NCBI RefSeq assembly: GCF_009834535.1
Contig: NC_045696.1
Span: forward strand, 41,294,001 to 41,358,000
From: Camelus ferus
Taxonomy: Eukaryota
DNA: 64,000 nucleotides
Reading direction: 5' to 3'
Shown here: one piece after another, positions 1-57,639 of the stretch
How the letters are laid out: every line of letters starts with the position of its first letter
How positions within the stretch are numbered: the stretch's first letter is position 1
Position numbers and translations under genes: made by a program
The notes under the pieces: model-generated
Database searches by the model: none
Seen by the model: only the letters and a program-made list of their open reading frames with translations
What the model was told of the DNA's origin: nothing

Positions 1-34
1 AAAGCACTTGCGGAAGGTCAGAAAGCGGCATTAC

Positions 35-94
35 CAAATGCTGTCGCTGGGGCCTCTTTTATAGGAGTAACTGGTTCAAAGACTGTAGCTGGAA
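35..94 (-). CDS. ABI3BP: ABI3BP repeat exon D, copy 1: VPATVFEPVTPIKEAPATAF
   Basis: 60 nt; acceptor tttttggtcag, donor gtaatg. Confidence 0.86.
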
Positions 95-743
95 CTGACC
101 AAAAATAACAACAGTAAAAAATGAAATATTAAACATTTATACAATCTCAGACGGGACATGGTGTATCTGCTCTCGGGTACCAATTTATCCCTTAGGAAGG
201 GTTGTCTTTGTACTCAGATAACTGTCCCTGAGAAGTGCCCCAGAAGTTCACATTCTGTGATGATCCCCGTCTAAGTAATGGGCCAAAGTAGACATACCCA
301 TCTTGCCAAAAACTCATCTTTGGAAAGAGATCATGAACTTGGCCCATCTGGGGTCCTTAAGAGAAGACGATAAGGGGCAGCCATTCATTCTGTGGTGCAG
401 CCGTATCCCTCTGCCTTACCCCAGGGAAAGCGTATGGGGTATGGATACTGATGATGCTCACGTGAAACCCAAAGTTCTAAGTCCAGTAGTAAAATTCACT
501 TTTCAACTGGTTCTATGAACCCACTGAGATGCAGGAGTGTCAATAAAATATTCTGATTAGTACTTAGAAACCTGAGAGCCTTTATCAGTCAGAGAAGCCT
601 CTGTCTCCCCTCACTGGTCTCCTCTCATGTCCTTGTCTTTCTGATATACTTCATCCTTCATTCTCTGGTTACCAAATATAGAGTGACTTCATGGCTCAAG
701 TCGTTCCTAACTCTTCTGGCCAACCCTGACTGTTTCTTTAAAC

Positions 744-934
744 CAAACATTGACAGACTCTGGCCCTGAGGCCAAAACTTGCCCATGGCTTGTTTTCATA
801 CAGCCCATTTCTATCTTTAATTTGTTGTTTAAAAAAAAAAAAAAAAGAGAAAAAATGCATCAGAGACTATTTGGGCCTCAAATCCCCAATATTGACTAGT
901 CTTGCCCTTTACAGACAATACTTGCCAACTCCTG
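744..934 (+). mobile_element. MER58-family hAT-Charlie MITE (in unit copy 1)
   Basis: 3' end ...ttgccctttacagacaatacttgccaactcctg resembles the recalled MER58 terminus. Confidence 0.65.
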
Positions 935-1190
935 CCCTAGGGCTGTACCATGAGTTATACACCACAAATATATCACCCTGCAGATACATATTCTTAACTA
1001 AGTTCCTACTTGACTCTCTTAAAAACCAATGAGTTTTTTTTCTAACACTTTTCAATACATTAAGAGGTAAATAAGTGACAATTGACAAGAACATAAGATT
1101 CTCAAGAAGCAGAAGATGAGGTTATGACGGTGATGAAATGGGTCTGAAATGAGCAGAAGCAGATGCTGACAGACATATTGTGTCATTTAC

Positions 1191-1250
1191 CTACTGTCGT
1201 CCCAGGAGCCTCGGTCCTAAGAATACCTGGTTCAGGGATTGTGGCAGGAA
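1191..1250 (-). CDS. ABI3BP: ABI3BP repeat exon B, copy 1: VPATIPEPGILRTEAPGTTV
   Basis: 60 nt; acceptor ttttgatcag, donor gtaaat. Confidence 0.86.
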   Translation of the reverse strand, partial: FLPQSLNQVFLGPRLLGRQ

Positions 1251-2208
1251 CTGATCAAAAGTAATCAAAGAAATCAAAGAGATTTTTGTGAATGCATGGA
1301 ATGTCAGCAAAGTCATCCTACCGGTAACAATAATGCTTCTAAGGGAGAAGGGGGAGGGGGAGGATGGATGACACACAAAAGCTGTAACACCAAGAGGCAG
1401 GAACTCTGGGGAGGTGGGTGGTGATGGGGACGAGGGGGTTATCCTGGGTTCTGTCCTCCACACATAGAACAGAGCTGAAAAGAAGCCTAGACGCTACTAA
1501 GAGACTAAGTCCTTAGTGAAAACAGTGGCATTTAATATATTAAGGTAAGAAACATCATCTCATATTGTGGTATCATATTCTAGGCATTCTTCATATTCTA
1601 GGCATCTTCAGTTCTAAGCAGAGAAAAAGCAGGGGACTGGGTAGAAGTAAGGATCACTGAAGCCCACTGGATCACACTGGAGCTCTTAAGAGGACATCCC
1701 AATCCCCTTTAATTCACCCTACAGGCCCATTCAATAGATGTGTATCAACAAGTCACCCTCTGTCTGGGACACCAGCTTCCTTCAGCACATTCCCTGTTCC
1801 CTCATCCCTCCACTCATTCAGATTTTGTACTGATTTTTTCCTAATTATCTGTGATCTTTTCCTGCTCCAAATACTGCACTTCTAGCATAAGCATTTGGAC
1901 TACTTGAGAAATCATCTTACATTTGTATCAATGTGCTGCCATATGTTATTTTCTACCCGTTTATACCAGAAAGGCTTTTGTTTACAACTATAGTAGGAAA
2001 TGGTAGGGAAAGAAAACATAATGCCTACTTCTATGTGTCTCACAGCTGCTAATATGGTTATGAGGATACAGAAGGGTTTACTAATGAGAGTGGCTTTTAC
2101 TATTAAGGGATATATAACATAAAGACCTGTACCAATTATGTGCTTAGAATTTAGGGTCCCAACTAAGGTAGAGGCTTGGATTCCTTAACCCAGAAACCAC
2201 ATATTTAC

Positions 2209-2298
2209 CCAGTTTGGTGTGAGGTACTTCTGGACGGGGTGTGGTTTTAGCTTTGGGACGTGGACGACGGGGTCTCTTTGTTGTTGTTGTTGTTGGCG
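2209..2298 (-). CDS. ABI3BP: ABI3BP repeat exon A, copy 1: APTTTTTKRPRRPRPKAKTTPRPEVPHTKL
   Basis: 90 nt; canonical sites; inside supplied ORF 2144..2326. Confidence 0.88.
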
Positions 2299-3511
2299 CT
2301 GAAGGAAGAAAATTTAGGGTTAACATGGTGCTGTACGGCTCCGTTAACTCTGAGCGAGTGGTGTAACTGGGCTCTAAGCTTTCTAAGACTGGCCGGAGTT
2401 TCCTTGATCAGGAGACAACTTTGGTTCTTGGGTTTGTACTTTTCCTCTTTAGTATTCTGATAGGTTTTCTTTTATAACTGGGAATTGTCTAGAGATTAAA
2501 AATTACATTAAAAAAAGTTCAAGATCACTGTGAAGCCAAAAATCACTTCACCATTCGCTCCCTGGGGGTGTATGGTGTTACATATTCAACCAGTGACAGG
2601 CTACCAGGCTTCTCAACCCAGGAGCCTGCTTTGGTCTGTTGCATCTCAGCCACACCGGCACATGGAGTGGTTTTAAGTATGTGTTGTGAATGATATGTCC
2701 ACTGGGATGCTTTTGCAAGTAGAAAAAGATAAAGTCTAGTTACTTTAAAGCTTACACTTCCGCAAACTACAGGTTTTTAAAAAAAACTTTAAGTTTTCCA
2801 AAGCTTGATAGATTTTCCTCTGTTTCATAAAATGTATCTTTCTCAACTGAAAAGTTTGCCCCTACCGTGCTATTACACCTTCCTTTGGTTTTGAGGCATT
2901 GTGGGGACAAAGCTGACATATAAAATGAAGTTATTAATTCAGATAGTCAAGATTGGCATTTTTATCATGCTCTAGAGGTCTCTGACTGCATTAAAAAGTT
3001 AATCATTTCTAAACTAAGGTGGACAGTAAGGGGGAGTCAGATTCAACTTAAGGATGGTGCTTACTATTTAAACTTCTTAGCCTTGATCACATTGTCTTTT
3101 AGACAATTCACTGAAAACATATTACCCAAATGTTTAACTTAACAACAACAACAACAAAAAACAGATAGAGAAAAAAGACAGGTGTACAATGGATGGGTAA
3201 AAAGTACCCTGTCACAGGCTGGATGGCACAGATCAGGATCAGGGTTCTCCTAAACACATAAAATTTACCTGACAAGAGAATTCTGGTTGAGCTAAGAACA
3301 TTAAGTGGCATGAAAAAAAATTTAAATAACTTAATAGGGCGTAAGTATCCCAAACTATATCTGGGCCTGGCTCCCTTTAGAACAAGAGGTAACTTGCTTT
3401 ATGCATGTTTAACTCATAAGATAATTTAACTGAACTGCAATGGAGAGGCAAGGACAGAAGTTTGGTAAAGAGCAGAAAAAGCACTTGCGGAAGGTCAGAA
3501 AGCGGCATTAC

Positions 3512-3559
3512 CAAATGCTGTCGCTGGAGCCTCTTTTATAGGAGTAACTGGTTCAAAGA
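3512..3559 (-). CDS. ABI3BP: ABI3BP repeat exon D, copy 2 (in frame only as the 48-nt form VFEPVTPIKEAPATAF)
   Basis: Donor gtaatg intact; the homologous acceptor (exon start 3569) gives 58 nt and a stop; the internal tttgctatag acceptor gives an in-frame 48 nt exon. Confidence 0.55.
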
Positions 3560-4222
3560 CTATAGCAAACTGACTGATAATAATAATAATTAAAATATAA
3601 AGTGTTACACATTTATACAGTCTCAGAGGGACGTGGTTTATCCGCACTCAGGTACCATTTATTCCTTAGGAGGGGTTGTCTTTATACTCAGACAACTGTG
3701 CCCTGGGAAGTGTCCCGGGAGTTCTTCATTCTGTGATGATGCTTGTCTAAGTAGTGGACCAAAGTAGACCTACCCATCTTGCCAAAAACTCATCTTTGGA
3801 AAGAGATCATGAACTTGGCCCAACTAGGGTTCTCAACTGAACAAGATAAGGGGCAGCCATGCGGTCTGCTGGCGCAGCCGTATCCCCCTGTTCCTCCCCA
3901 AGGAAAAGCCGACCAGGTGTGGATACTGACGATTCTTATGTGAAAACTCAAAGTTCTAAGTCCAACAGGAAAAATTCCTTTTAAACTAGTCCTATGAACC
4001 CTGAGCTGCAGGAGCTTCAGTAAAAATGTTTCGATGAGCATGTAGAAGCCTCAGAGCCTTTTATCAGTCAGAGAAACCTCTGTCTCCCCTCACTGGTCTC
4101 CTCTCATGTACTGTCTCTCTGACCTTCTTCAGTCCCCATCTCCTAGTCAACCAAATCTATGGTGATTTCAATGCTCAAGTCCTTCCTAACTCTTCTGGCC
4201 AACCCTGACTGTTTCCTTAAAC

Positions 4223-4414
4223 CAAACATTGACAGACTCTGGCCCTGAGGCCAAATCTTGTCCATGGCTTGTTTTCATACAGCCCATTTCCATTTCTAAG
4301 CGGTTGTTAAAAAGAAAAACCAAAAGAAAAAAATGTGCATCAGAGACATTTTGGGCCACAAAGCCCCCAATATTGACTGTCTTGCCCTATACAGACAATA
4401 CTTGCCAACTCCTG
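4223..4414 (+). mobile_element. MER58-family MITE (in unit copy 2)
   Basis: Paralog of 744-934. Confidence 0.65.
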
Positions 4415-4675
4415 CCCTAGGGCTGTACCATGAGTTATACACCACAAATGCATCACCCTGCAGATACATATTCTCAACTAAGTTCCTACTTGACTCTCTT
4501 CAAAAACCAATGAGTTGTTTTTTTAACACTTTTCAATACATTGAGAGGTAAATAAGTGACAATTGACAAGTTCACAAGATTCTCATGAAGCAGGAGAAGA
4601 TGAGGTTATGACAGGTGATGAAATGGGTCTGAAATGAGCAGAAGCAGATGCTGACGGACATAATGTGTCATTTAC

Positions 4676-4736
4676 CTACTGTCGTCCCAGGAGCCTCGGT
4701 CCTAAGAATACCTGGTTCAGGGACTTGTGGCAGGAA
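4676..4736 (-). pseudogene. ABI3BP: ABI3BP repeat exon B, copy 2, frameshifted (61 nt; real or assembly error)
   Basis: One extra base (c at 4724) relative to copies 1 and 3; reads VPATSP* if included. Confidence 0.6.
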
Positions 4737-5706
4737 CTGATCAAAAGTAATTCAAAGAAATCAAAGAGATTTTTGTGAATGCATGAAATGTCAGCAAAGT
4801 CATCCTACCGGTAACAATAATGCTTCTAAGGGAGAAGGGGGAGGGGGAGGATGGATGACACACAAAAGCTGTAACACCAAGAGGCAGGAACTCTGGAGGG
4901 GGAAGGGGTGGTGATGGGGACGAGGGGGTTATCCTGGGTTCTGTCCTCCACTCATAGATCAGAAAGCTGAAAAGAAGCCCAGACTCTACTCACTAGGTGA
5001 CTAAGTCCTTAGTGAAAACAGTGGCATTTAATATATTCAGGCAAGAAATAACCTCTCAGATTGTGGTATCACAGTGGACTCGGCATCTCCAGTGCTAAGC
5101 AGAGCAAAAGCAGGGGCCTGGCTAGAAGTAAGGATCACTGAAGCCCACTGGATCTCACTTGAGCTCTTGAGTAGACATCCCAGCCCCCTTTAATTCACCC
5201 TACAGGCCTTACCAACAGGCGCACATCAACAAGTCATCCTCTGTCTGGGACGCCGGCTTCCTTCAGCACATTCCCTGTTTATTGAGTCTTGTTGCCTCAT
5301 CCTTCCACTCATCCAAATTCTGTACTAATTTCTCCTAATTATCCTGGATCTTTTCCCTCTCCAAGTACTTATTCTACTTCTAGCATAAGATTTGGACTAT
5401 TTGAGACATTATCTTACATTTGTATCAACATGCTGCCTTATGCTATTTTCTACCTGTTTACAAAAGATACAGCTTTTGTTTACAACTATAGCACAAAATG
5501 ATAGGGAAAGAAAACATAATGCCTACTTTTGATGTGTCTCCCAGCTGCCTATATGGTTATGTGGATATAGAAGGGTTTAATAGTAAGAGTACGTTTTACC
5601 ATTAAGAATGTATAGTATAAAGACCGGTATCAATTATGTGCTTAGAATTTAGGGTCCCAACTGAGGTAGAGGCTTGGATTCCTTAACCCAGAAACCACAT
5701 ATTTAC

Positions 5707-5802
5707 CCAGTTTGGTCTGAGGTACTTCTGGATGGGGTGTGGTTTTAGTTTTGGGACGTGGACGACGGGGTCTCTTTGTTGTTGTTGTTGTTGTTGTTGG
5801 CG
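5707..5802 (-). CDS. ABI3BP: ABI3BP repeat exon A, copy 2: APTTTTTTTKRPRRPRPKTKTTPHPEVPQTKL
   Basis: 96 nt; canonical sites; inside supplied ORF 5642..5872. Confidence 0.88.
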
Positions 5803-7015
5803 CTGAAGGAAGAAAATTTAGGATTAATATGGTGCTGATGGCTCCATTAACTTGAATAGAATGATGTAACATGGCTCTAAGCTTTCTAAAACTGGCTGGA
5901 GTTTCTTTGAGTGGAGACAGCTTTGTTACTTCAGTTTGATATGTTCCTCTTTAACAGATTGAAAGGTGTTCCTTTATAATTAAGAATACTTTAGACATTA
6001 AGAGTTACATTAAAGTTATGTTTAAGATGATTGTGAAGCCACAAATTTCTTTACAGTTGCTCCCTGGGGGTGTATGGTGGTACATTTTCAGCCAGTGACA
6101 GGCTACCAGGCTTCTCAAACCAAGGACCCTGCTTTGGTCTGGTGTGGTCCCAGCTACACCTGGACTTGTGGTGGTTTTAGGTTTGTGTTGTGAATTATAC
6201 GTCCACTGGGAAGTTTTTGGAAGTAGCGACGATAAAGTTTAGTTCCTTAAAGCTTATGCTTCTGCAAATACTAGGTTTTTTTAAAAAAAATCTTTAAGTT
6301 TTCCAAAGCTTGGTAGATTTCAGTCTGCTTCAGGAAATGTAAGTTCCTAGTCTGAAAAGTTTGCCCCTACCCTGCTGCTGTATCTTCCTTTCATATTGGA
6401 AGTATTTTGGGGACAAAGTTGACATATAAAATGAAGTTAATTCAGAAAGTCAGAATTGGTGTTTTTATCACATTCTAGATGTCTCTGACTGCATTAAAAA
6501 GGTTAAGAACCATCTAAACTATGGTGGAGGATAAGGGCAGTCAGATTCACCTTAACACAGGGGCTTACTATGTAAACTTATTAGACTTGATCATATTATC
6601 TGTTAGACAATTCACTGAAAACATACTACCCAAATGTTTAAACAACAACAAAAACAGGCACATAAAAAAAGAGGCTGGTGTACAAAGGATGTATACAGCT
6701 ACTTCCCTGTCATGGGCTGATTAGCACAGGTCAGGATCAGAGTTCTCCTAAACAGATAAAATTTACCTTAACACAAACCTCTGCTTTAGCTAAAAATAGT
6801 AAGTGGCAGTGAAAATTTTTAAGCAATTTAAAGGTGAGGAAAATATCCCTTGCTAGATTCAGGTATGGCTCTCTTTAGTACTAGAGGTAACTTTTTTTTA
6901 ATGCATGTTTGACTCACAAGAAAAAGAACAGTAACTGAACAGCAATGGAGTGGAAAGAGCAGAAGTTTGGCAACGAGCAGAAAAAGCACTTGCTGAAACC
7001 AGAAAGCGGCATTAC

Positions 7016-7075
7016 CAAATGCTGTCGCTGGGGCCTCTTTTATAGGAGTAACTGGTTCAAAGACTGTAGCTAGAA
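7016..7075 (-). CDS. ABI3BP: ABI3BP repeat exon D, copy 3: VLATVFEPVTPIKEAPATAF
   Basis: 60 nt; acceptor ttttggttag, donor gtaatg. Confidence 0.85.
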
Positions 7076-7686
7076 CTAACCAAAAAGAAAAGAAATGTTA
7101 AACATTTATACAGTCTCAGAGGGACCCGGTTTATTTGCACTCAGGTACCATTTATCCCCTAGGAGGGGTTGTCTTCGTACTCAGATAACTGTCCCTGAGA
7201 AGGGCCCCAGAAGTTCACAATCTGTGATGGTCCTCGTCTAAGTAATGGACCAAAGTAGATGTACCCGTCTTGCCAAAATACTCCTCTTTGGAAAGAGACC
7301 ATGAACTTAGCCCAACTAAGGATCCTTAAGAGAGGCAGCCATTTGGTCCGTATCCTTCTGTCCCTCCACCAGGGAAAGCCTACCGGCTACTGGATACTGA
7401 TGATTCTCCTATGAAAGTCAAAGTCCTAAGTCCAACAGGAAAAATTCCTTTTCAACTAGTCCTGTGAGCCCAGTCAGCTACAGGAGCTTCAATGTTCTGA
7501 TGAGCATGTAGAAGCCCGAGATCGTTTATCGGTCAGAGAAGACTCTGTCTGCCCTCACTAGTCTCCTGTCACTTCTTGTCTTTCAGACCTTCTTCATCCC
7601 CTATCCTGCAGTCAAACAAACCTACAGTGATTTCGTGCTCAAGTCTTTCCTAACTATGCTGGCCCACGCTCATTATTTCTTCAACC

Positions 7687-7880
7687 CAGGGGTTGACAAA
7701 CTATGGCTCAGAGGCAAAATCTTGCCCATAGTTTGTTCGCATATTTCCCATTTACATTTTTAAGTGTTCATTCTAAAAACAAAGGGAAATGAGAGAAAAA
7801 TGTGTTAAGAGACTGTCTGGGCCACAAAGCCCCCAGTATTGACGACGTTGCCCTTTGTAGACAATACTTGCCAACTCCTG
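7687..7880 (+). mobile_element. MER58-family MITE (in unit copy 3)
   Basis: Terminal inverted repeats caggggttgacaaac ... ttgccaactcctg; best-preserved copy. Confidence 0.75.
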
Positions 7881-8219
7881 CCCTAGGGCTGTACCATGAC
7901 TTACACAACTTTTACAGATACCAAGAACAACCTCCAATTTGCCCAAACACAGGTTTCCTCTGTAGTTGTTTCAGTCTACCACACACATTCCATATTTAAA
8001 GCATGAATGCAACTGAAGGAGAAGCCAGTGAAGCAGACACTGAGAGAGGGGACTGCAAGTCACACGCGGAAGGAGCTGGGCTACCACCTGAGACTCAGAC
8101 TGGGCTCCGGTTCGCTACTCCAGAGGGAAAGTGGCCGCTGACCCTGACTTGCCCCTTCCCCGTCTCTGGACCCCACTGGGATGGGCTCAGGATTCCTTCC
8201 CCAAGATCTACACAGTTAC

Positions 8220-8304
8220 CCAGTTCTGCCTGAGGTGCTTTAGGACTCAGTGTGGGTTTAGATTTGGGACGGTGGATGAAGAGGTCGACGAGGCACTTTG
8301 GGAG
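8220..8304 (-). pseudogene. ABI3BP: ABI3BP dead basic-type exon C (APKVPRRPLHP-fs-RPKSKPTLSPKAPQAEL)
   Basis: 85 nt (not 3n); acceptor reads ttcctttAT; donor gtaact intact; clearly paralogous to A-type exons. Confidence 0.8.
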
Positions 8305-9124
8305 ATAAAGGAAGAAAACTCAGGTTAATAGTGAGATTTTAGCTCCAGAAGCTGTGGAAAGGACTATACTTGTTATCATTTCTTGAGATTCAGGACATTT
8401 TTGTTTTGAATTTGAAATATTTCCCCCTCTTTTGATTTTGCCTCTTTGTACCATTTGTATTACTCTGGAAAGCAGAAATCCCACAGAAACATGGACTAAG
8501 GAAATCCTTACTGAGATTTCTGAAAGGAAAAAAGGTTACAAAAATCCACTTAACTGTGTTGATGGTAAGGAAAGCATAGGGTGACTTTACACAGATGATG
8601 GTGCTTTTATTTCCATTTCCTAGCCCTGGGCATATTTTCTACTTCACTCCTTACTGAAAAAAGACTGTATCAGGACTTAAAATGGCAAAATAAAGACAAT
8701 GCAGGTAGTGAACAGGTAGGAATCGAGACCTGCACAGGTGTCACGTCCCACTATAACAGCTGTGACAGTGTATTCAGCTCAGGTCAAGGACACACACCCC
8801 ACCCCGAGCCTCCACTGCCTATGTCTGAAACTCAGTAACACAGAATGTGATTAAAAGGTTAGCTGGGGGTGAGTGGCTACAAATTTAAATGCATCGCCTT
8901 GCAGATAAATATTCTCAACTAAGTTCCTACTTGACTCTCTTAAAAACCAATGAGCTTTTTTTCTTTAACACTTTTCAATACATTAAGAGGTAAATAAATG
9001 ACAATAGAGGATGACATATGAGTCTTGTGAAGCAGGAGAAGATGAGGTTATGATGGTGATGAAATGATGAAATGGGTCTGAAATGAGCAGAAGCAGATGC
9101 TGACGGACATAATGTGTCATTTAC

Positions 9125-9184
9125 CTACTGTCGTCCCAGGAGCCTCAGTCCTAAGAATACCTGGTTCACGGATTGTGGCAGGAA
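9125..9184 (-). CDS. ABI3BP: ABI3BP repeat exon B, copy 3: VPATIREPGILRTEAPGTTV
   Basis: 60 nt; acceptor ttttgatcag, donor gtaaat. Confidence 0.87.
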   Translation of the reverse strand, partial: FLPQSVNQVFLGLRLLGRQ

Positions 9185-10143
9185 CTGATCAAAAGTAATT
9201 AAAGAAATCAAAGAGATTTTTGTGAATGCATGAAATGTCAGCAAAGTCATCCTACCGGTAACAATAATGCTTCTAAGGGAGAAGGGGGAGGGGGAGGATG
9301 GATGACACACAAAAGCTGTAACACCAAGAGGCAGGAACTCTGGGGAAGGGGGGTGGTGATGGGGACGAGGGGGTTATCCTGGGTTCTGTCCTCCACACAT
9401 AGAACAGAGCTGAAAAGAAGCCCATACTCTACTCACTAGGTGACTAAGTCCTTAGTGAAAACAGTGGCATTTAATACATTAAGGTGAGAAACAACCTCTC
9501 AGATTGTGGTATCACAGTGGACTCGGCATCTCCAGTGCTAAGCAGAGCAAAAGCAGGGCCCTGGCTAGAAGTAAGGATCACTGAAGCCCACTGGATCACA
9601 CTTGAGCTCTTGAGTAGATATCCCAGCCCCTTTTAATTCATCCGAAGGGCCCATTCAGCAGATGTGTATCAACAAGTCATCCTCTGTCTGGGACGCCGGC
9701 TTCCTTCAGCACATTCCCTGTTTATTATGAGTCTTGTTGCCTCATCCTTCCACTCATCCAAATTCTGTACTAATTTTTTCCCCTAATTATCCTTGATCTT
9801 TTCCTGCTCCAAATACTTACTATATGTCTAGCATAAGCATTTGGACTATTTGAAAAATCATCTTACATTTGTATCAACATGCTGCCTTATGCTATTTTCC
9901 ACCTGTTTACACAGGAAAACCTTTTGTTTACAACTATAGTACAAAATGATAGGGAAAGAAAAGATAATTCCTACCTCTGTCTCCTAGCTGCTAATATGGT
10001 TATGTGGATATAGAAGAGTTTAATAGTAAGAGTAGCTTTTACCATTAAGAATATATAAGGCGTGTACTAATTTTATGCATAGAATTTAGGGTCCCAACTA
10101 GGGTAGAGGCTTGGATTCCTTAACCCCAAAGCCACATATTTAC

Positions 10144-10236
10144 CCAGTTTGGTCTGAGCTGCTTCTGGACGGGGTGTGGTTTTAGCTTTGGGACGTGGAC
10201 GACGGGGTCTCTTTGTTGTTGTTGTTGTTGTTGGCG
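10144..10236 (-). CDS. ABI3BP: ABI3BP repeat exon A, copy 3: APTTTTTTKRPRRPRPKAKTTPRPEAAQTKL
   Basis: 93 nt; acceptor ttcttccttcag, donor gtaaat. Confidence 0.9.
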
Positions 10237-11041
10237 CTGAAGGAAGAAAATTTACAATTAATACAGTGCTGATGGCTCCATTAACTCTGAATATTATATA
10301 TGTTCAGGATGATATAATACTGGCGCTAAGCTTCTAAAACCTGCCAGAATTCCTTGGAGTGGAGACAATTTTGTTACTTCAGTTTGAAATTTTCCCCTCT
10401 AATATATTAATAGGTTTTCTTTTCTAACTGAGAATGCTCTAGAGATTAAAAATTACATTACAGTTATGTTTAAGAAACGAAGATGAGAAATTATCAGCTT
10501 CTTGCAAGTGTCCCTGCATACAGATTACTGCCAAACTATGATGGTATGAGAGAAATTCACAGCATCTTAGATTATTCCCTTATAATTTAAAATAACTTAG
10601 ATTGGGCAAGTGTTCTACTTGGTAATTTATTAGAATAAGTACATAAAATTTGATGAAACATCACGTACATTAAAAAAAATTATGCAGTACTTAAAATCTA
10701 GAGATAAAGATGCCTGGAGAAACTCCATGGTATCATAACTGATACTGCATTGGTGGTCTAGGGATTTACGGAGAATTACATTTGGACCTCAGCTCTAGCA
10801 AACAGCGTTCTTTAAACAGAAACTCAGATTGACATGACGCAATTACAAGCGGGGAGATGGAGCAGATAGCTGTCTTGAATTTAGTCCATAGACATTAACA
10901 TTAGAAAGAAAGCCTTTTATATTTTAAGATGAATACAGCAACAGGATGACATCAAATTACGGCATCATCTCGGTGGTACCACAGGTAAGTCTGACAATAA
11001 ATACACAAGAGCACCTGCTGAAGGACATAAAGGATCATTAC

Positions 11042-11074
11042 CTAAAGATGTCTAAGGACTAATAGGTTCAAAGC
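11042..11074 (-). pseudogene. ABI3BP: ABI3BP 33-nt exon with in-frame stop: GFEPISP*TSL
   Basis: Intact acceptor (ttcttgccacag) and donor (gtaatg); TAG at 11052-11054 in the phase-1 frame. Confidence 0.72.
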
Positions 11075-12418: not shown

Positions 12419-12517
12419 CTAGTTTGGTCTGAGGTGTCTCTGGACTCGGTGTGGTTTTATATTTAGGACGTGGACGTCCTGGACGATGGGGTCTTGTTCT
12501 TTGTGATGTTTTTGGAG
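12419..12517 (-). CDS. ABI3BP: ABI3BP stalk exon (basic type): APKTSQRTRPHRPGRPRPKYKTTPSPETPQTKL
   Basis: 99 nt; acceptor cctttcttcag, donor gtaaat; phase 1-1. Confidence 0.9.
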   Translation of the reverse strand, partial: LQKHHKEQDPIVQDVHVLNIKPHRVQRHLRPN

Positions 12518-15762: not shown

Positions 15763-15825
15763 TGGGCTGGATTTGAGGTGCATCGGGTCTGCATATGGTT
15801 TTAGGTCTTTTGAATGGTTTTGACG
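15763..15825 (-). pseudogene. ABI3BP: ABI3BP pseudo-exon with lost acceptor: ASKPFKRPKTICRPDAPQIQP
   Basis: 63 nt open exon-like segment with donor gtaatc, but the acceptor reads ttttctttGG instead of AG. Confidence 0.75.
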
Positions 15826-45149: not shown

Positions 45150-45790
45150 TTTCCTCCAATTTTTGTGGTAAAAGATTTACAGTCTTCACTGTTAAGTGTG
45201 CGATTCAGTGGTATTAAATACGTTCAGAATATTGTGCAATCATCACTACCATCCATCTCCAGAACTCGTTTCATCTTGTAAAACTGAAACTCTGTACCAT
45301 GGAACACTAACTCCCCATTCTCCTCCTCCTCCAGTCCCTGATAACCATCATCATACCTTCCGTCTCTATGAATTGATCACTCTAGTACCTCATACAAGTG
45401 GAATCATATATTCTTTTTATCCTTTGTGACTGGCTTATTGCACTTAGCACAATGTCCTCAAAGTTCATCCACATTGTAGTGTACGTTGGAATTTCCTTTT
45501 TTTTTTAAGGCTAAATAGTATTTCATTGTGTGTATATACCACATTTTGCTTATCCATTCATTTGTTAATGGGCACTTAGATTTCTTCCACATTTTAGCTG
45601 TTGTGAATAATGCTGCTATGAACATGGGTGTACAAGTATCTCTTTAAGAACTTTTGTTTTCCACTTCTTTTGGTTATATACCCAGAAGTGGAACTGCTGT
45701 ATAATATGGTAATTCTATATTCATTCTTTTGAGGAATGGTTGTATTGTTTTCCTGTAACTGTAGCATTTTATATTCCTGTTCACTGTGCA
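45150..45790 (-). mobile_element. Old L1 (L1MA/MB-type) 3' fragment
   Basis: catacaagtggaatcata, gactggcttattgcacttagcacaatg, gtgaataatgctgctatgaacat, atatacccagaagtgga. Confidence 0.85.
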
Positions 45791-45920
45791 CATGCCTATT
45801 CCTTACTTGTTACTTTGAGGTCCCCAAACAGCTTACTTGCTAGATCCCTTGGCTATCCTAAGACTATCAGTGCTAGTCTTCAGTCACTGCAAAGTCCAAA
45901 TATAGATCTTTGCTGCTTAC

Positions 45921-56816: not shown

Positions 56817-56998
56817 TTCCAACAATAGTCTTGTGATTAAAAATCTTACTCCAAATTCCACCTTCTACATTGTCTTTCACTCCAAATTCATAAACCGTGT
56901 CAGGCTTTAGATTTTCCACGATTGTTTCAGTGGCTGGACAGAGTTGAAAAATCCATTTCTTTTCCTTATCCTTTTCTCTATAGCGGATTGTATAAAAT
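56817..56998 (-). CDS. ABI3BP: ABI3BP exon, FN3 domain (about exon 5): (R)FYTIRYREKDKEKKWIFQLCPATETIVENLKPDTVYEFGVKDNVEGGIWSKIFNHKTIVG
   Basis: 182 nt; acceptor ttcaacag, donor gtaagt; phase 2 to 1; inside supplied ORF 56791..57033. Confidence 0.97.
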
Positions 56999-57639
56999 CT
57001 GTTGAATAACCAAAATATGCTATGAAACCACAAGGAGATTCAGAATCTACTTCAAATTTCTTCACACATCACAGACTCCCATCTACTCTGAAGATTTAAT
57101 ATTGGCTTCTGTTTAGATTTTTTAAAATTTGCAAAGAACATGAAAAAATTGCTCAGTGTGTGCTTAAGTTTTTAATTTCTCACAGCAAGTTAGGGGACCG
57201 GGTACAGCATAGTCACAGTCGGACAAAACTCCAGATCTCTCAGTTCTATTATTTGCTACTTTGCAAAATGAAGGTTGGAAAACAGTAGATGTTTGGTTTT
57301 TTTTCTGTTATGCATAGAGAAGAACACAGGCATATTTTTATAACTAGTTAACATTATAGTTTCATGAGTGTATGAGTTTTAAGCCTTTTTACTCCATGGA
57401 AGGTGAGTTAGAGGTATTTGTAAAAGGAGAAGCATAGACTCTAAGACACATCCAGGACAGCATTTCAAGGGTGACATTTCCTTATTATTAAAAAAAGGAT
57501 CAAGACCAATAGCCAAGCTAAGGGTACAAAGAGAAAAATCAAATAATGTAAACTCAAGATCACTGCTACACATGTGCTTAGGGCTTTATAACATTCAGAA
57601 GTACACACGGCAAAGTAATGATAATCCTCACCACTACTT

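Follow-up and report, generated by a model that had tools for sequence, protein, structure and literature searches.

The window analysed here, a stretch of 64,000 nucleotides from Camelus ferus (a Bactrian-type camel; NC_045696.1, positions 41,294,001 to 41,358,000), carries ABI3BP on its minus strand, with three colinear tandem units within the region that encodes the stalk of the protein. These units very probably arose by an ancient tandem duplication of symmetric exons confined to camelids, followed by patchy gene conversion and offset by the loss of other exons. The assignment to ABI3BP, proposed in the first-pass annotation, was confirmed by the core of an FN3-coding exon (56821-57000, minus strand, as are all exons and exon remnants below), which has 97-100% identity to the 120 matches listed, nearly all of them named ABI3BP or target of Nesh-SH3. 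Also, all 17 single-copy window exons tested are found in the Bactrian model. The ABI3BP stalk is described as an alternatively spliced disordered region, with a longest human isoform of 1786 aa (PMC5740500, PMC9239745, PMC13518942), and in humans splicing of this stalk is altered in osteoarthritis cartilage and during osteoblast differentiation (PMC9239745, PMC13518942).

Self-BLAST aligned positions 1-4441 with 3478-7907 (82.7% identity), 1-961 with 6983-7907 (78.8%), 4446-6027 with 8887-10475 (88.4%) and 966-2510 with 8887-10460 (84.6%); over aligned columns, unit-to-unit identity is 85.4, 85.7 and 88.4%. The copies are adjacent, lie on the same strand and include their introns, as in tandem exon duplication, in agreement with the earlier proposal that whole exon-intron blocks had been duplicated. 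The starts given at that time (1, 3478 and 6983, for a unit of about 3.5 kb) are indeed homologous positions, but the true junctions are located at 10475, 6027/6028 and 2524/2525, and the units occupy 4.4 kb, 3.5 kb and, where truncated by the left edge, 2.5 kb of the window. Unit 1 (6028-10475), the 5'-most of the gene, carries exons A1, B1 and D1 and the dead exons C and E, and reaches 4.45 kb because it retains a 980-bp segment (7908-8886) bearing the dead fourth exon, C; this segment is absent from units 2 and 3, deleted at the identical point in both. Unit 2 (2525-6027; 3503 bp) holds A2, B2, D2 and a dead E, and unit 3 (1-2524) holds A3, B3 and D3. As anticipated, the array passes the left window edge, as judged from self-BLAST and from a fourth unit that the protein models place beyond that edge. 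Tandem Repeats Finder reported no relevant repeat in the window.

The nine array exons all have AG/GT ends, and seven of them are multiples of three in length and of phase 1-1. Exon A, a basic Pro/Thr/Arg repeat, measures 93, 96 and 90 nt in units 1 to 3 (10144-10236, 5707-5802 and 2209-2298), exon B 60, 61 and 60 nt (9125-9184, 4676-4736 and 1191-1250) and exon D 60, 58 and 60 nt (7016-7075, 3512-3569 and 35-94), the two exceptions in the window being B2 (61 nt) and D2 (58 nt). Since the newest models of all three camelid species carry an intact B2 of 20 aa, its extra base in the window is probably a consensus error, that is, a false frameshift. Unit 2 looks error-prone in general, having 12 unique single-nucleotide insertions, where unit 1 has 2 and unit 3 has 7. 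Exon D2 has a weakened acceptor and occurs in no camelid model; an in-frame rescue of 48 nt through a downstream AG is possible on sequence and is seen in none of 112 camelid models. Thus, of the expectation that each intact unit adds about 70 residues without frameshift, frame neutrality was upheld, but unit 2 adds about 50 residues and the newest models never contain more than three D exons.

Pseudo-exon E, what is left of a basic-type exon (6139-6222; 84 nt, AG/GT ends lacking), has a second copy in unit 2 (~2636-2718), and its signature occurs in none of 229 protein models. An 84-nt open frame in the conserved patch, upstream of B, was considered as a hidden exon and rejected, its signature being likewise found in 0 of 229 models. 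An old element of about 195 bp with imperfect terminal inverted repeats (7687-7880) was duplicated along with the units (copies at ~4223-4414 and ~744-934), as previously noted. It may be MER58-like (hAT-Charlie); its ends match at 11 of 16 positions, and no 8-bp target duplication was seen.

In alpaca, dromedary and Bactrian alike, the newest models reach four units in one common order, with at most four A, four B and three D exons; this full set occurs in 7 of the 9 new models for Bactrian, likewise in 7 of 9 for dromedary, and in 17 of 19 for alpaca. Older models reach at most two A copies in dromedary, three in Bactrian and four in alpaca, and the lower counts probably reflect assembly gaps through which units were under-counted. 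Exon inclusion was judged from database gene models, in which isoforms of one annotation are non-independent, and unit orthology was compared at the protein level, alpaca being represented by protein models. At this level, unit-specific residues recur in order across the three species, and the D exon of unit 2 is missing in the two camelid genera compared. All 199 non-camelid mammal models contain no exon A or a single one. Four deer models with two D-like motifs hold no duplicate, the second motif being an older upstream exon. A search of shorter proteins for camelid fragments derived from sequencing runs gave 7 matches out of 8000 candidates scored, and none of the 7 was identified as camelid. 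Because four units occur in three camelids and no second exon A in the 199 non-camelid models, the duplication appears to date to the camelid stem, the ancestor of camels and alpacas, rather than to a false duplication of haplotypes. The suggested lineage specificity therefore stands among the mammals seen.

The further suggestion that the expansion is relatively recent does not agree with intron divergence. Outside the patch around exon B, K2P distances between units are 0.189, 0.199 and 0.154, which at an assumed rate would place the duplication roughly 35-45 My ago, and the array is common to camels and alpaca. The copying probably began with a single duplication of an A-B-C-D-(E) block, at a junction without obvious homology, after which the new copy would have lost the C segment and unequal crossing-over would have added two more copies, all before the camel/alpaca split. 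A block duplication of units 1 and 2 into 3 and 4, suggested by the alternation of two A types, was rejected: like unit 2, which it resembles more closely, unit 3 is without the C segment that unit 1 retains.

Following duplication, non-allelic conversion has probably kept the exons and their flanks alike. Array exons and a 380-bp homogenised patch around exon B (9060-9440; counterparts at ~4610-4997 and ~1126-1501) are 96-97% alike between units, with K2P of 0.03-0.04 among all three units versus 0.154-0.199 in introns. The near-identity once ascribed to the kb-scale units is limited to these exons and patches; overall identity is only 85-88%. The longest identical intronic runs (143, 113 and 110 bp) were equalled in 0, 0 and 1 of 2000 shuffles, and synonymous differences number 2, 1 and 1 where the intron rate predicts 7.5, 7.8 and 6.2 (P = 0.014, 0.002 and 0.010). 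Also, in alpaca as in Bactrian, unit 2 and unit 4 share the same A and B sequences, which differ at 4 residues between the two species, and species-specific residues are spread across paralogues. Identity tracts beyond chance, low synonymous divergence and likeness of paralogues within species are the marks of concerted evolution and, since exons and patch are 96-97% alike and species-specific residues are shared across paralogues, point to patchy gene conversion as the apparent cause. Selection on splice enhancers or signals could account for part of the low synonymous divergence.

Duplication was accompanied by loss. No camelid model retains any of five ancestral stalk exons (X, Y, C, I and L): their signatures occur in 0 of 113 of these, as against 37, 66, 60, 35 and 70, respectively, of 116 long non-camelid models. 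Broken remnants of three of them remain in the window, X and Y upstream of the array and C inside it, and the loss of I and L, which lie outside the window, is seen in protein models only. Pseudo-exon C (8220-8304; 85 nt) has a broken frame and AT as its acceptor, and human, rhino, whale and pig have a coding orthologue of it. Pseudo-exon Y (11042-11074; 33 nt) has intact splice sites and an in-frame TAG and is coding in other mammals, while pseudo-exon X (15763-15825), a basic exon of 63 nt with an open frame, has GG as its acceptor and matches the rhino exon at 17 of 20 aa. Between these two lies A0 (12419-12517; 99 nt), an older single-copy basic paralogue. In camelids the core stalk is 666-700 aa long and has 8 basic modules, compared with 585-612 aa and 8-9 modules in whale, dolphin, rhino and sloth, giving a net gain of about 60-110 aa and a basic repeat count that is about unchanged; in composition, S+T account for 169 and P for 127 of 700 residues. 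The proposed lengthening of the stalk is thus real but partial, because five ancestral exons are missing, and the protein is rebuilt more than lengthened.

In functional terms, stalk exons that are all of phase 1-1 and multiples of three in length would allow copies to join or leave a Pro/Thr-rich disordered linker between FN3 domains with the frame kept. The spacer of the camelid long isoform would therefore be somewhat longer and more uniform, its basic repeats about as numerous as before. The most likely account of these changes is turnover that is nearly neutral, the region being tolerant. A more doubtful one is that selection holds the number and charge of basic repeats roughly constant, so that three extra A exons replaced, or made harmless, the loss of X, C and I: three basic exons would have died and three been born, repeat count and charge remaining ancestral and conversion keeping the copies uniform. 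The human cluster comprises 10 related exons (PMC5740500), and counting gives the same number for the long Bactrian model, including a degenerate one, with three lost and three gained; camelid cores carry a net charge of +30 to +42, those of a sperm-whale relative, rhino and sloth +31 to +43. However, bats, deer and bear have 6-7 basic modules and charges of +18 to +25 without compensating copies, and dolphin has +22, also without such copies (some of all these models not being the longest isoform); the cluster has reportedly been lost in mouse and rat (PMC5740500). Moreover, a single lineage provides a single data point. If true, compensation would be a natural experiment showing that what selection sees in a disordered linker, whole exon by whole exon, is valence and charge and not sequence.

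Still less probable than such compensation is a recent array that remains copy-number-variable and acts like a mucin VNTR. Unequal crossing-over could be seeded by patches that are 97-100% identical over as much as 143 bp, unit number differs between annotation versions, and the best DNA runs contain 0.72-0.73 of the sampled words of positions 1-10000, shares that give no copy number; runs with shares of 0.10 and 0.00 were disregarded. Against this, overall unit identity is 85-88%, and the same four-unit order, with unit 2 lacking D, occurs in two genera that split 11-25 My ago (PMC1939714). False duplication of haplotypes, which the excess of single-base insertions in unit 2, one within exon B2, might have suggested, is effectively refuted by a unit divergence of 12-15% compared with a reported camel nucleotide diversity of <0.1% (PMC7305198), by the same order of unit-specific residues in three species and by the presence of that share of words in 14 DNA runs from 7 studies, one of which may be from the source animal. 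Old duplication with patchy conversion and exon loss thus remains the preferred reading. It implies that the ABI3BP stalk tolerates wholesale rebuilding in a mammal. In practical terms, older camelid models give too few units, and exon B2 of the window probably carries a false frameshift.

The nearest known system is the stalk cluster of human ABI3BP/TARSH itself, the same gene with the same phase 1-1 exons. This cluster is already described as 10 similar exons with lineage-specific loss in the mouse/rat ancestor (PMC5740500). Human has a single A and has kept X, C and I, whereas in camelids A is present as four near-identical exons in duplicated kb-scale blocks, and X, Y, C, I and L are missing. 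Near-identical stalk repeats also occur in non-mammalian ABI3BP (sparrow, tailed frog, spadefoot, fire-bellied toad, newt, skate, stingray and pit viper), although their sequences, known here at the protein level, are unrelated to the camelid repeats. Among long representative proteins with this C-terminus, 16 of 41 have a 40-aa repeat at ≥36/40; eight of these 16 were checked and are named ABI3BP, and the other eight may include paralogues.

In titin PEVK and in the triplicated blocks of nebulin and titin, kb-scale exon-intron blocks with symmetric exons are likewise repeated in tandem within one gene, in an alternatively spliced flexible region. The nebulin and titin blocks are about 99% identical, and nebulin copy number varies in people; the camelid array has a similar architecture with units 85-88% identical. 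In mucin PTS-domain VNTRs, the repeats lie inside one large exon and vary among individuals, MUC3A being a single-exon example (bioRxiv 10.64898/2026.06.30.735536). The camelid stalk shares with PTS domains a repeated spacer rich in Pro, Thr and Ser, and its composition fits, but its repeats are separate exons of 58-96 nt, partly strongly basic, which appear fixed, and the units as a whole fall short of near-identity. No literature was found on dense O-glycosylation of this PTS-rich region, nor any paper on duplication in camelid ABI3BP, subscription literature being partly covered. The duplication is real and of a familiar kind, and it reveals no new mechanism; what is new is the loss of five ancestral stalk exons beside it. 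Camelid ABI3BP is a clean and datable case of exon birth, exon death and gene conversion within a single gene, where the dead exons can still be read next to the new ones.

Self-BLAST bore out the first-pass annotation's claim of at least three colinear copies, resolving three colinear units (1, 2 and 3 from right to left) in the left 10.5 kb, with junctions at 10475, 6027/6028 and 2524/2525 and pairwise identities, from a three-way alignment, of 85.4% (units 1/2), 85.7% (1/3) and 88.4% (2/3). Each unit encodes on the minus strand a basic stalk exon A and two acidic exons, B and D, with AG/GT ends throughout; 7/9 of these exons are of 3n length and phase 1-1, the exceptions being those of unit 2, B2 (61 nt) and D2 (58 nt). 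Exons A1, A2 and A3 lie at 10144-10236, 5707-5802 and 2209-2298 (-), respectively. A 980-bp segment (7908-8886) is present only in unit 1 and missing at the identical point in units 2 and 3, a deletion shared by both. A duplicated element with imperfect inverted ends (11/16 positions matching) may be a MER58.

An FN3 exon query retrieved ABI3BP/target of Nesh-SH3 models (best 120 of 2769 matches listed). All 17 single-copy window exons tested are unchanged in a Bactrian model, as are 15/17 in one dromedary model, 14/17 in a second, whose three misses include two exons skipped by that isoform, and 12/17 in alpaca; judged by these matches, the window is of Bactrian-type camel. Open frames in an ABI3BP intron at 45227-45809 (-) resemble the end of a LINE-1 ORF2.

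The array is real, camelid-specific and old. Twenty-nine models were tiled against rhino exons, and signatures were counted in 312 fetched proteins (113 camelid and 199 non-camelid models; A,B,D counts on 112 of the 113). Exon A occurs zero times or once in all 199 non-camelid models, and the best internal 40-aa repeat reaches at most 32/40 in these and 34-40 in 104 of the 113 camelid models.

Signatures of the ancestral stalk exons X, Y, C, I and L occur in none of the 113 camelid models; of 116 long non-camelid models, 37, 66, 60, 35 and 70, respectively, carry them. Remnants were located in the window of X (15763-15825, acceptor GG), of Y (11042-11074 (-), with an in-frame TAG and both splice sites kept) and of C (8220-8304, 85 nt, acceptor AT); if ever included, Y would be a poison exon for long isoforms. 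By tiling, exon G has lost most of its basic residues in camelids. Exon C is also missing from tiled ruminant and bat models (P0186, P0202, P0208, P0227, P0100), suggesting repeated, independent losses. An older dead exon, E, at 6139-6222 in unit 1 and about 2636-2718 in unit 2 (-), fills the only break, between D and F, in the pattern of alternating basic and acidic exons along the mammalian stalk, and therefore probably died before the placental radiation.

Divergence among units is only 0.03-0.04 in the exons and in a 380-bp patch around B. The longest identical intronic runs (143, 113 and 110 bp) were equalled in 0, 0 and 1 of 2000 shuffles, and synonymous differences number 2, 1 and 1 vs 7.5, 7.8 and 6.2 expected, these being small counts over ~45 sites from non-independent pairs. 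Unit 2 matches unit 4 exactly in A and B, both in alpaca and in Bactrian, with four residues differing between the species, and a residue confined to B1 in camels occurs in all four alpaca B exons; the overall pattern suggests gene conversion between units. Selection on splice enhancers could contribute to this likeness, as could mis-polishing between paralogues; old and new alpaca models agree wherever an exon is present in both. Within the patch, upstream of B, lies an open frame of 84 nt bounded by AG/GT (9256-9339 (-); copies at 4809-4892 and 1322-1405). It is nearly invariant across the three units, matches none of the protein models and may represent a tract regulating splicing or just a conversion tract.

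Unique single-base insertions number 12 in unit 2 vs 2 in unit 1 and 7 in unit 3. The extra base of B2 is probably a consensus error, since it falls at a codon that differs between Bactrian and dromedary models and all three species have an intact B2 in their newest models. The inactivity of D2 is probably real, as this exon is missing from every model in both genera.

Outside the B patch, intron K2P is 0.189, 0.199 and 0.154. At the rate of 1.1e-8 per 5-year generation assumed in PMC7305198, the duplications would be roughly 35-45 My old, an estimate lowered by conversion and raised by sequence errors. A firmer, phylogenetic bracket places them later than the divergence from pigs, ruminants and whales and earlier than that between camels and alpaca, for which PMC1939714 gives 11 My from fossils or 25 My from mitogenomes; the expansion is thus not relatively recent, contrary to what was first proposed.

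The array would have begun with one duplication, whose junction shows no clear homology; the new copy would next have lost C, unequal crossing-over would have yielded two more copies, and conversion would have come later. Old duplication with near-neutral turnover is the quite probable reading. The longest camelid models fetched, among isoforms other than X1, have 1888 aa (Bactrian X5) and 1859/1867 aa (alpaca), and outgroup models 1800 (Kogia X1), 1791 (rhino X1) and 1775 aa (sloth X1), the human protein having 1786 aa (PMC9239745). Basic modules number 8 in camelids vs 8-9 in the Kogia, rhino and sloth outgroups, and 6-7 in bats, deer and bear. Compensation, in which extra A exons offset lost basic exons under selection on repeat count and charge, is compatible with the same history and appears unlikely.

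The newest camelid models run A1 B1 D1, A2 B2, A3 B3 D3, A4 B4 D4, unit 4 lying outside the window. Continuing variation in unit number is improbable: in each of the three species the newest models reach (4,4,3) for A,B,D (7/9 Bactrian, 7/9 dromedary, 17/19 alpaca) and never exceed it, although older annotation sets, with at most two (dromedary), three (Bactrian) and four (alpaca) A copies, count against a fixed number; their lower counts would reflect assembly gaps. The camelid evidence comprises six annotation sets from three species, isoforms within one annotation not being independent. That the array is an assembly artefact is scarcely credible. Exon A starts with a trinucleotide microsatellite encoding 6, 7 and 5 threonines in A1, A2 and A3; the A2 run has 7 in Bactrian models and 5 in dromedary, with a proline run there in alpaca. 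This microsatellite is a likelier origin of length polymorphism than the number of units.

ABI3BP is a matrix protein working via integrin-beta1, its general function being described as largely unknown in PMC6426741, and its linker is alternatively spliced and disordered (PMC13518942, PMC9239745). The frame-neutral exons would supply this linker; their basic repeats may bind glycosaminoglycans and their threonines may be O-glycosylated, and the literature search found no paper on either property of these repeats.

The search likewise found no description of camelid ABI3BP exon duplication; the duplicated exons are already included in RefSeq models. Human ABI3BP has a cluster of 10 similar phase 1-1 exons, which the mouse/rat ancestor lost, according to PMC5740500 and its supplement 3. 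Of 41 long representative relatives, 16 have near-identical stalk repeats; the eight identified by name among them come from a sparrow, three frogs, a newt, a skate, a stingray and a pit viper. Re-expansion of the stalk is therefore habitual in the ABI3BP family, though none was observed in the other sampled mammals.
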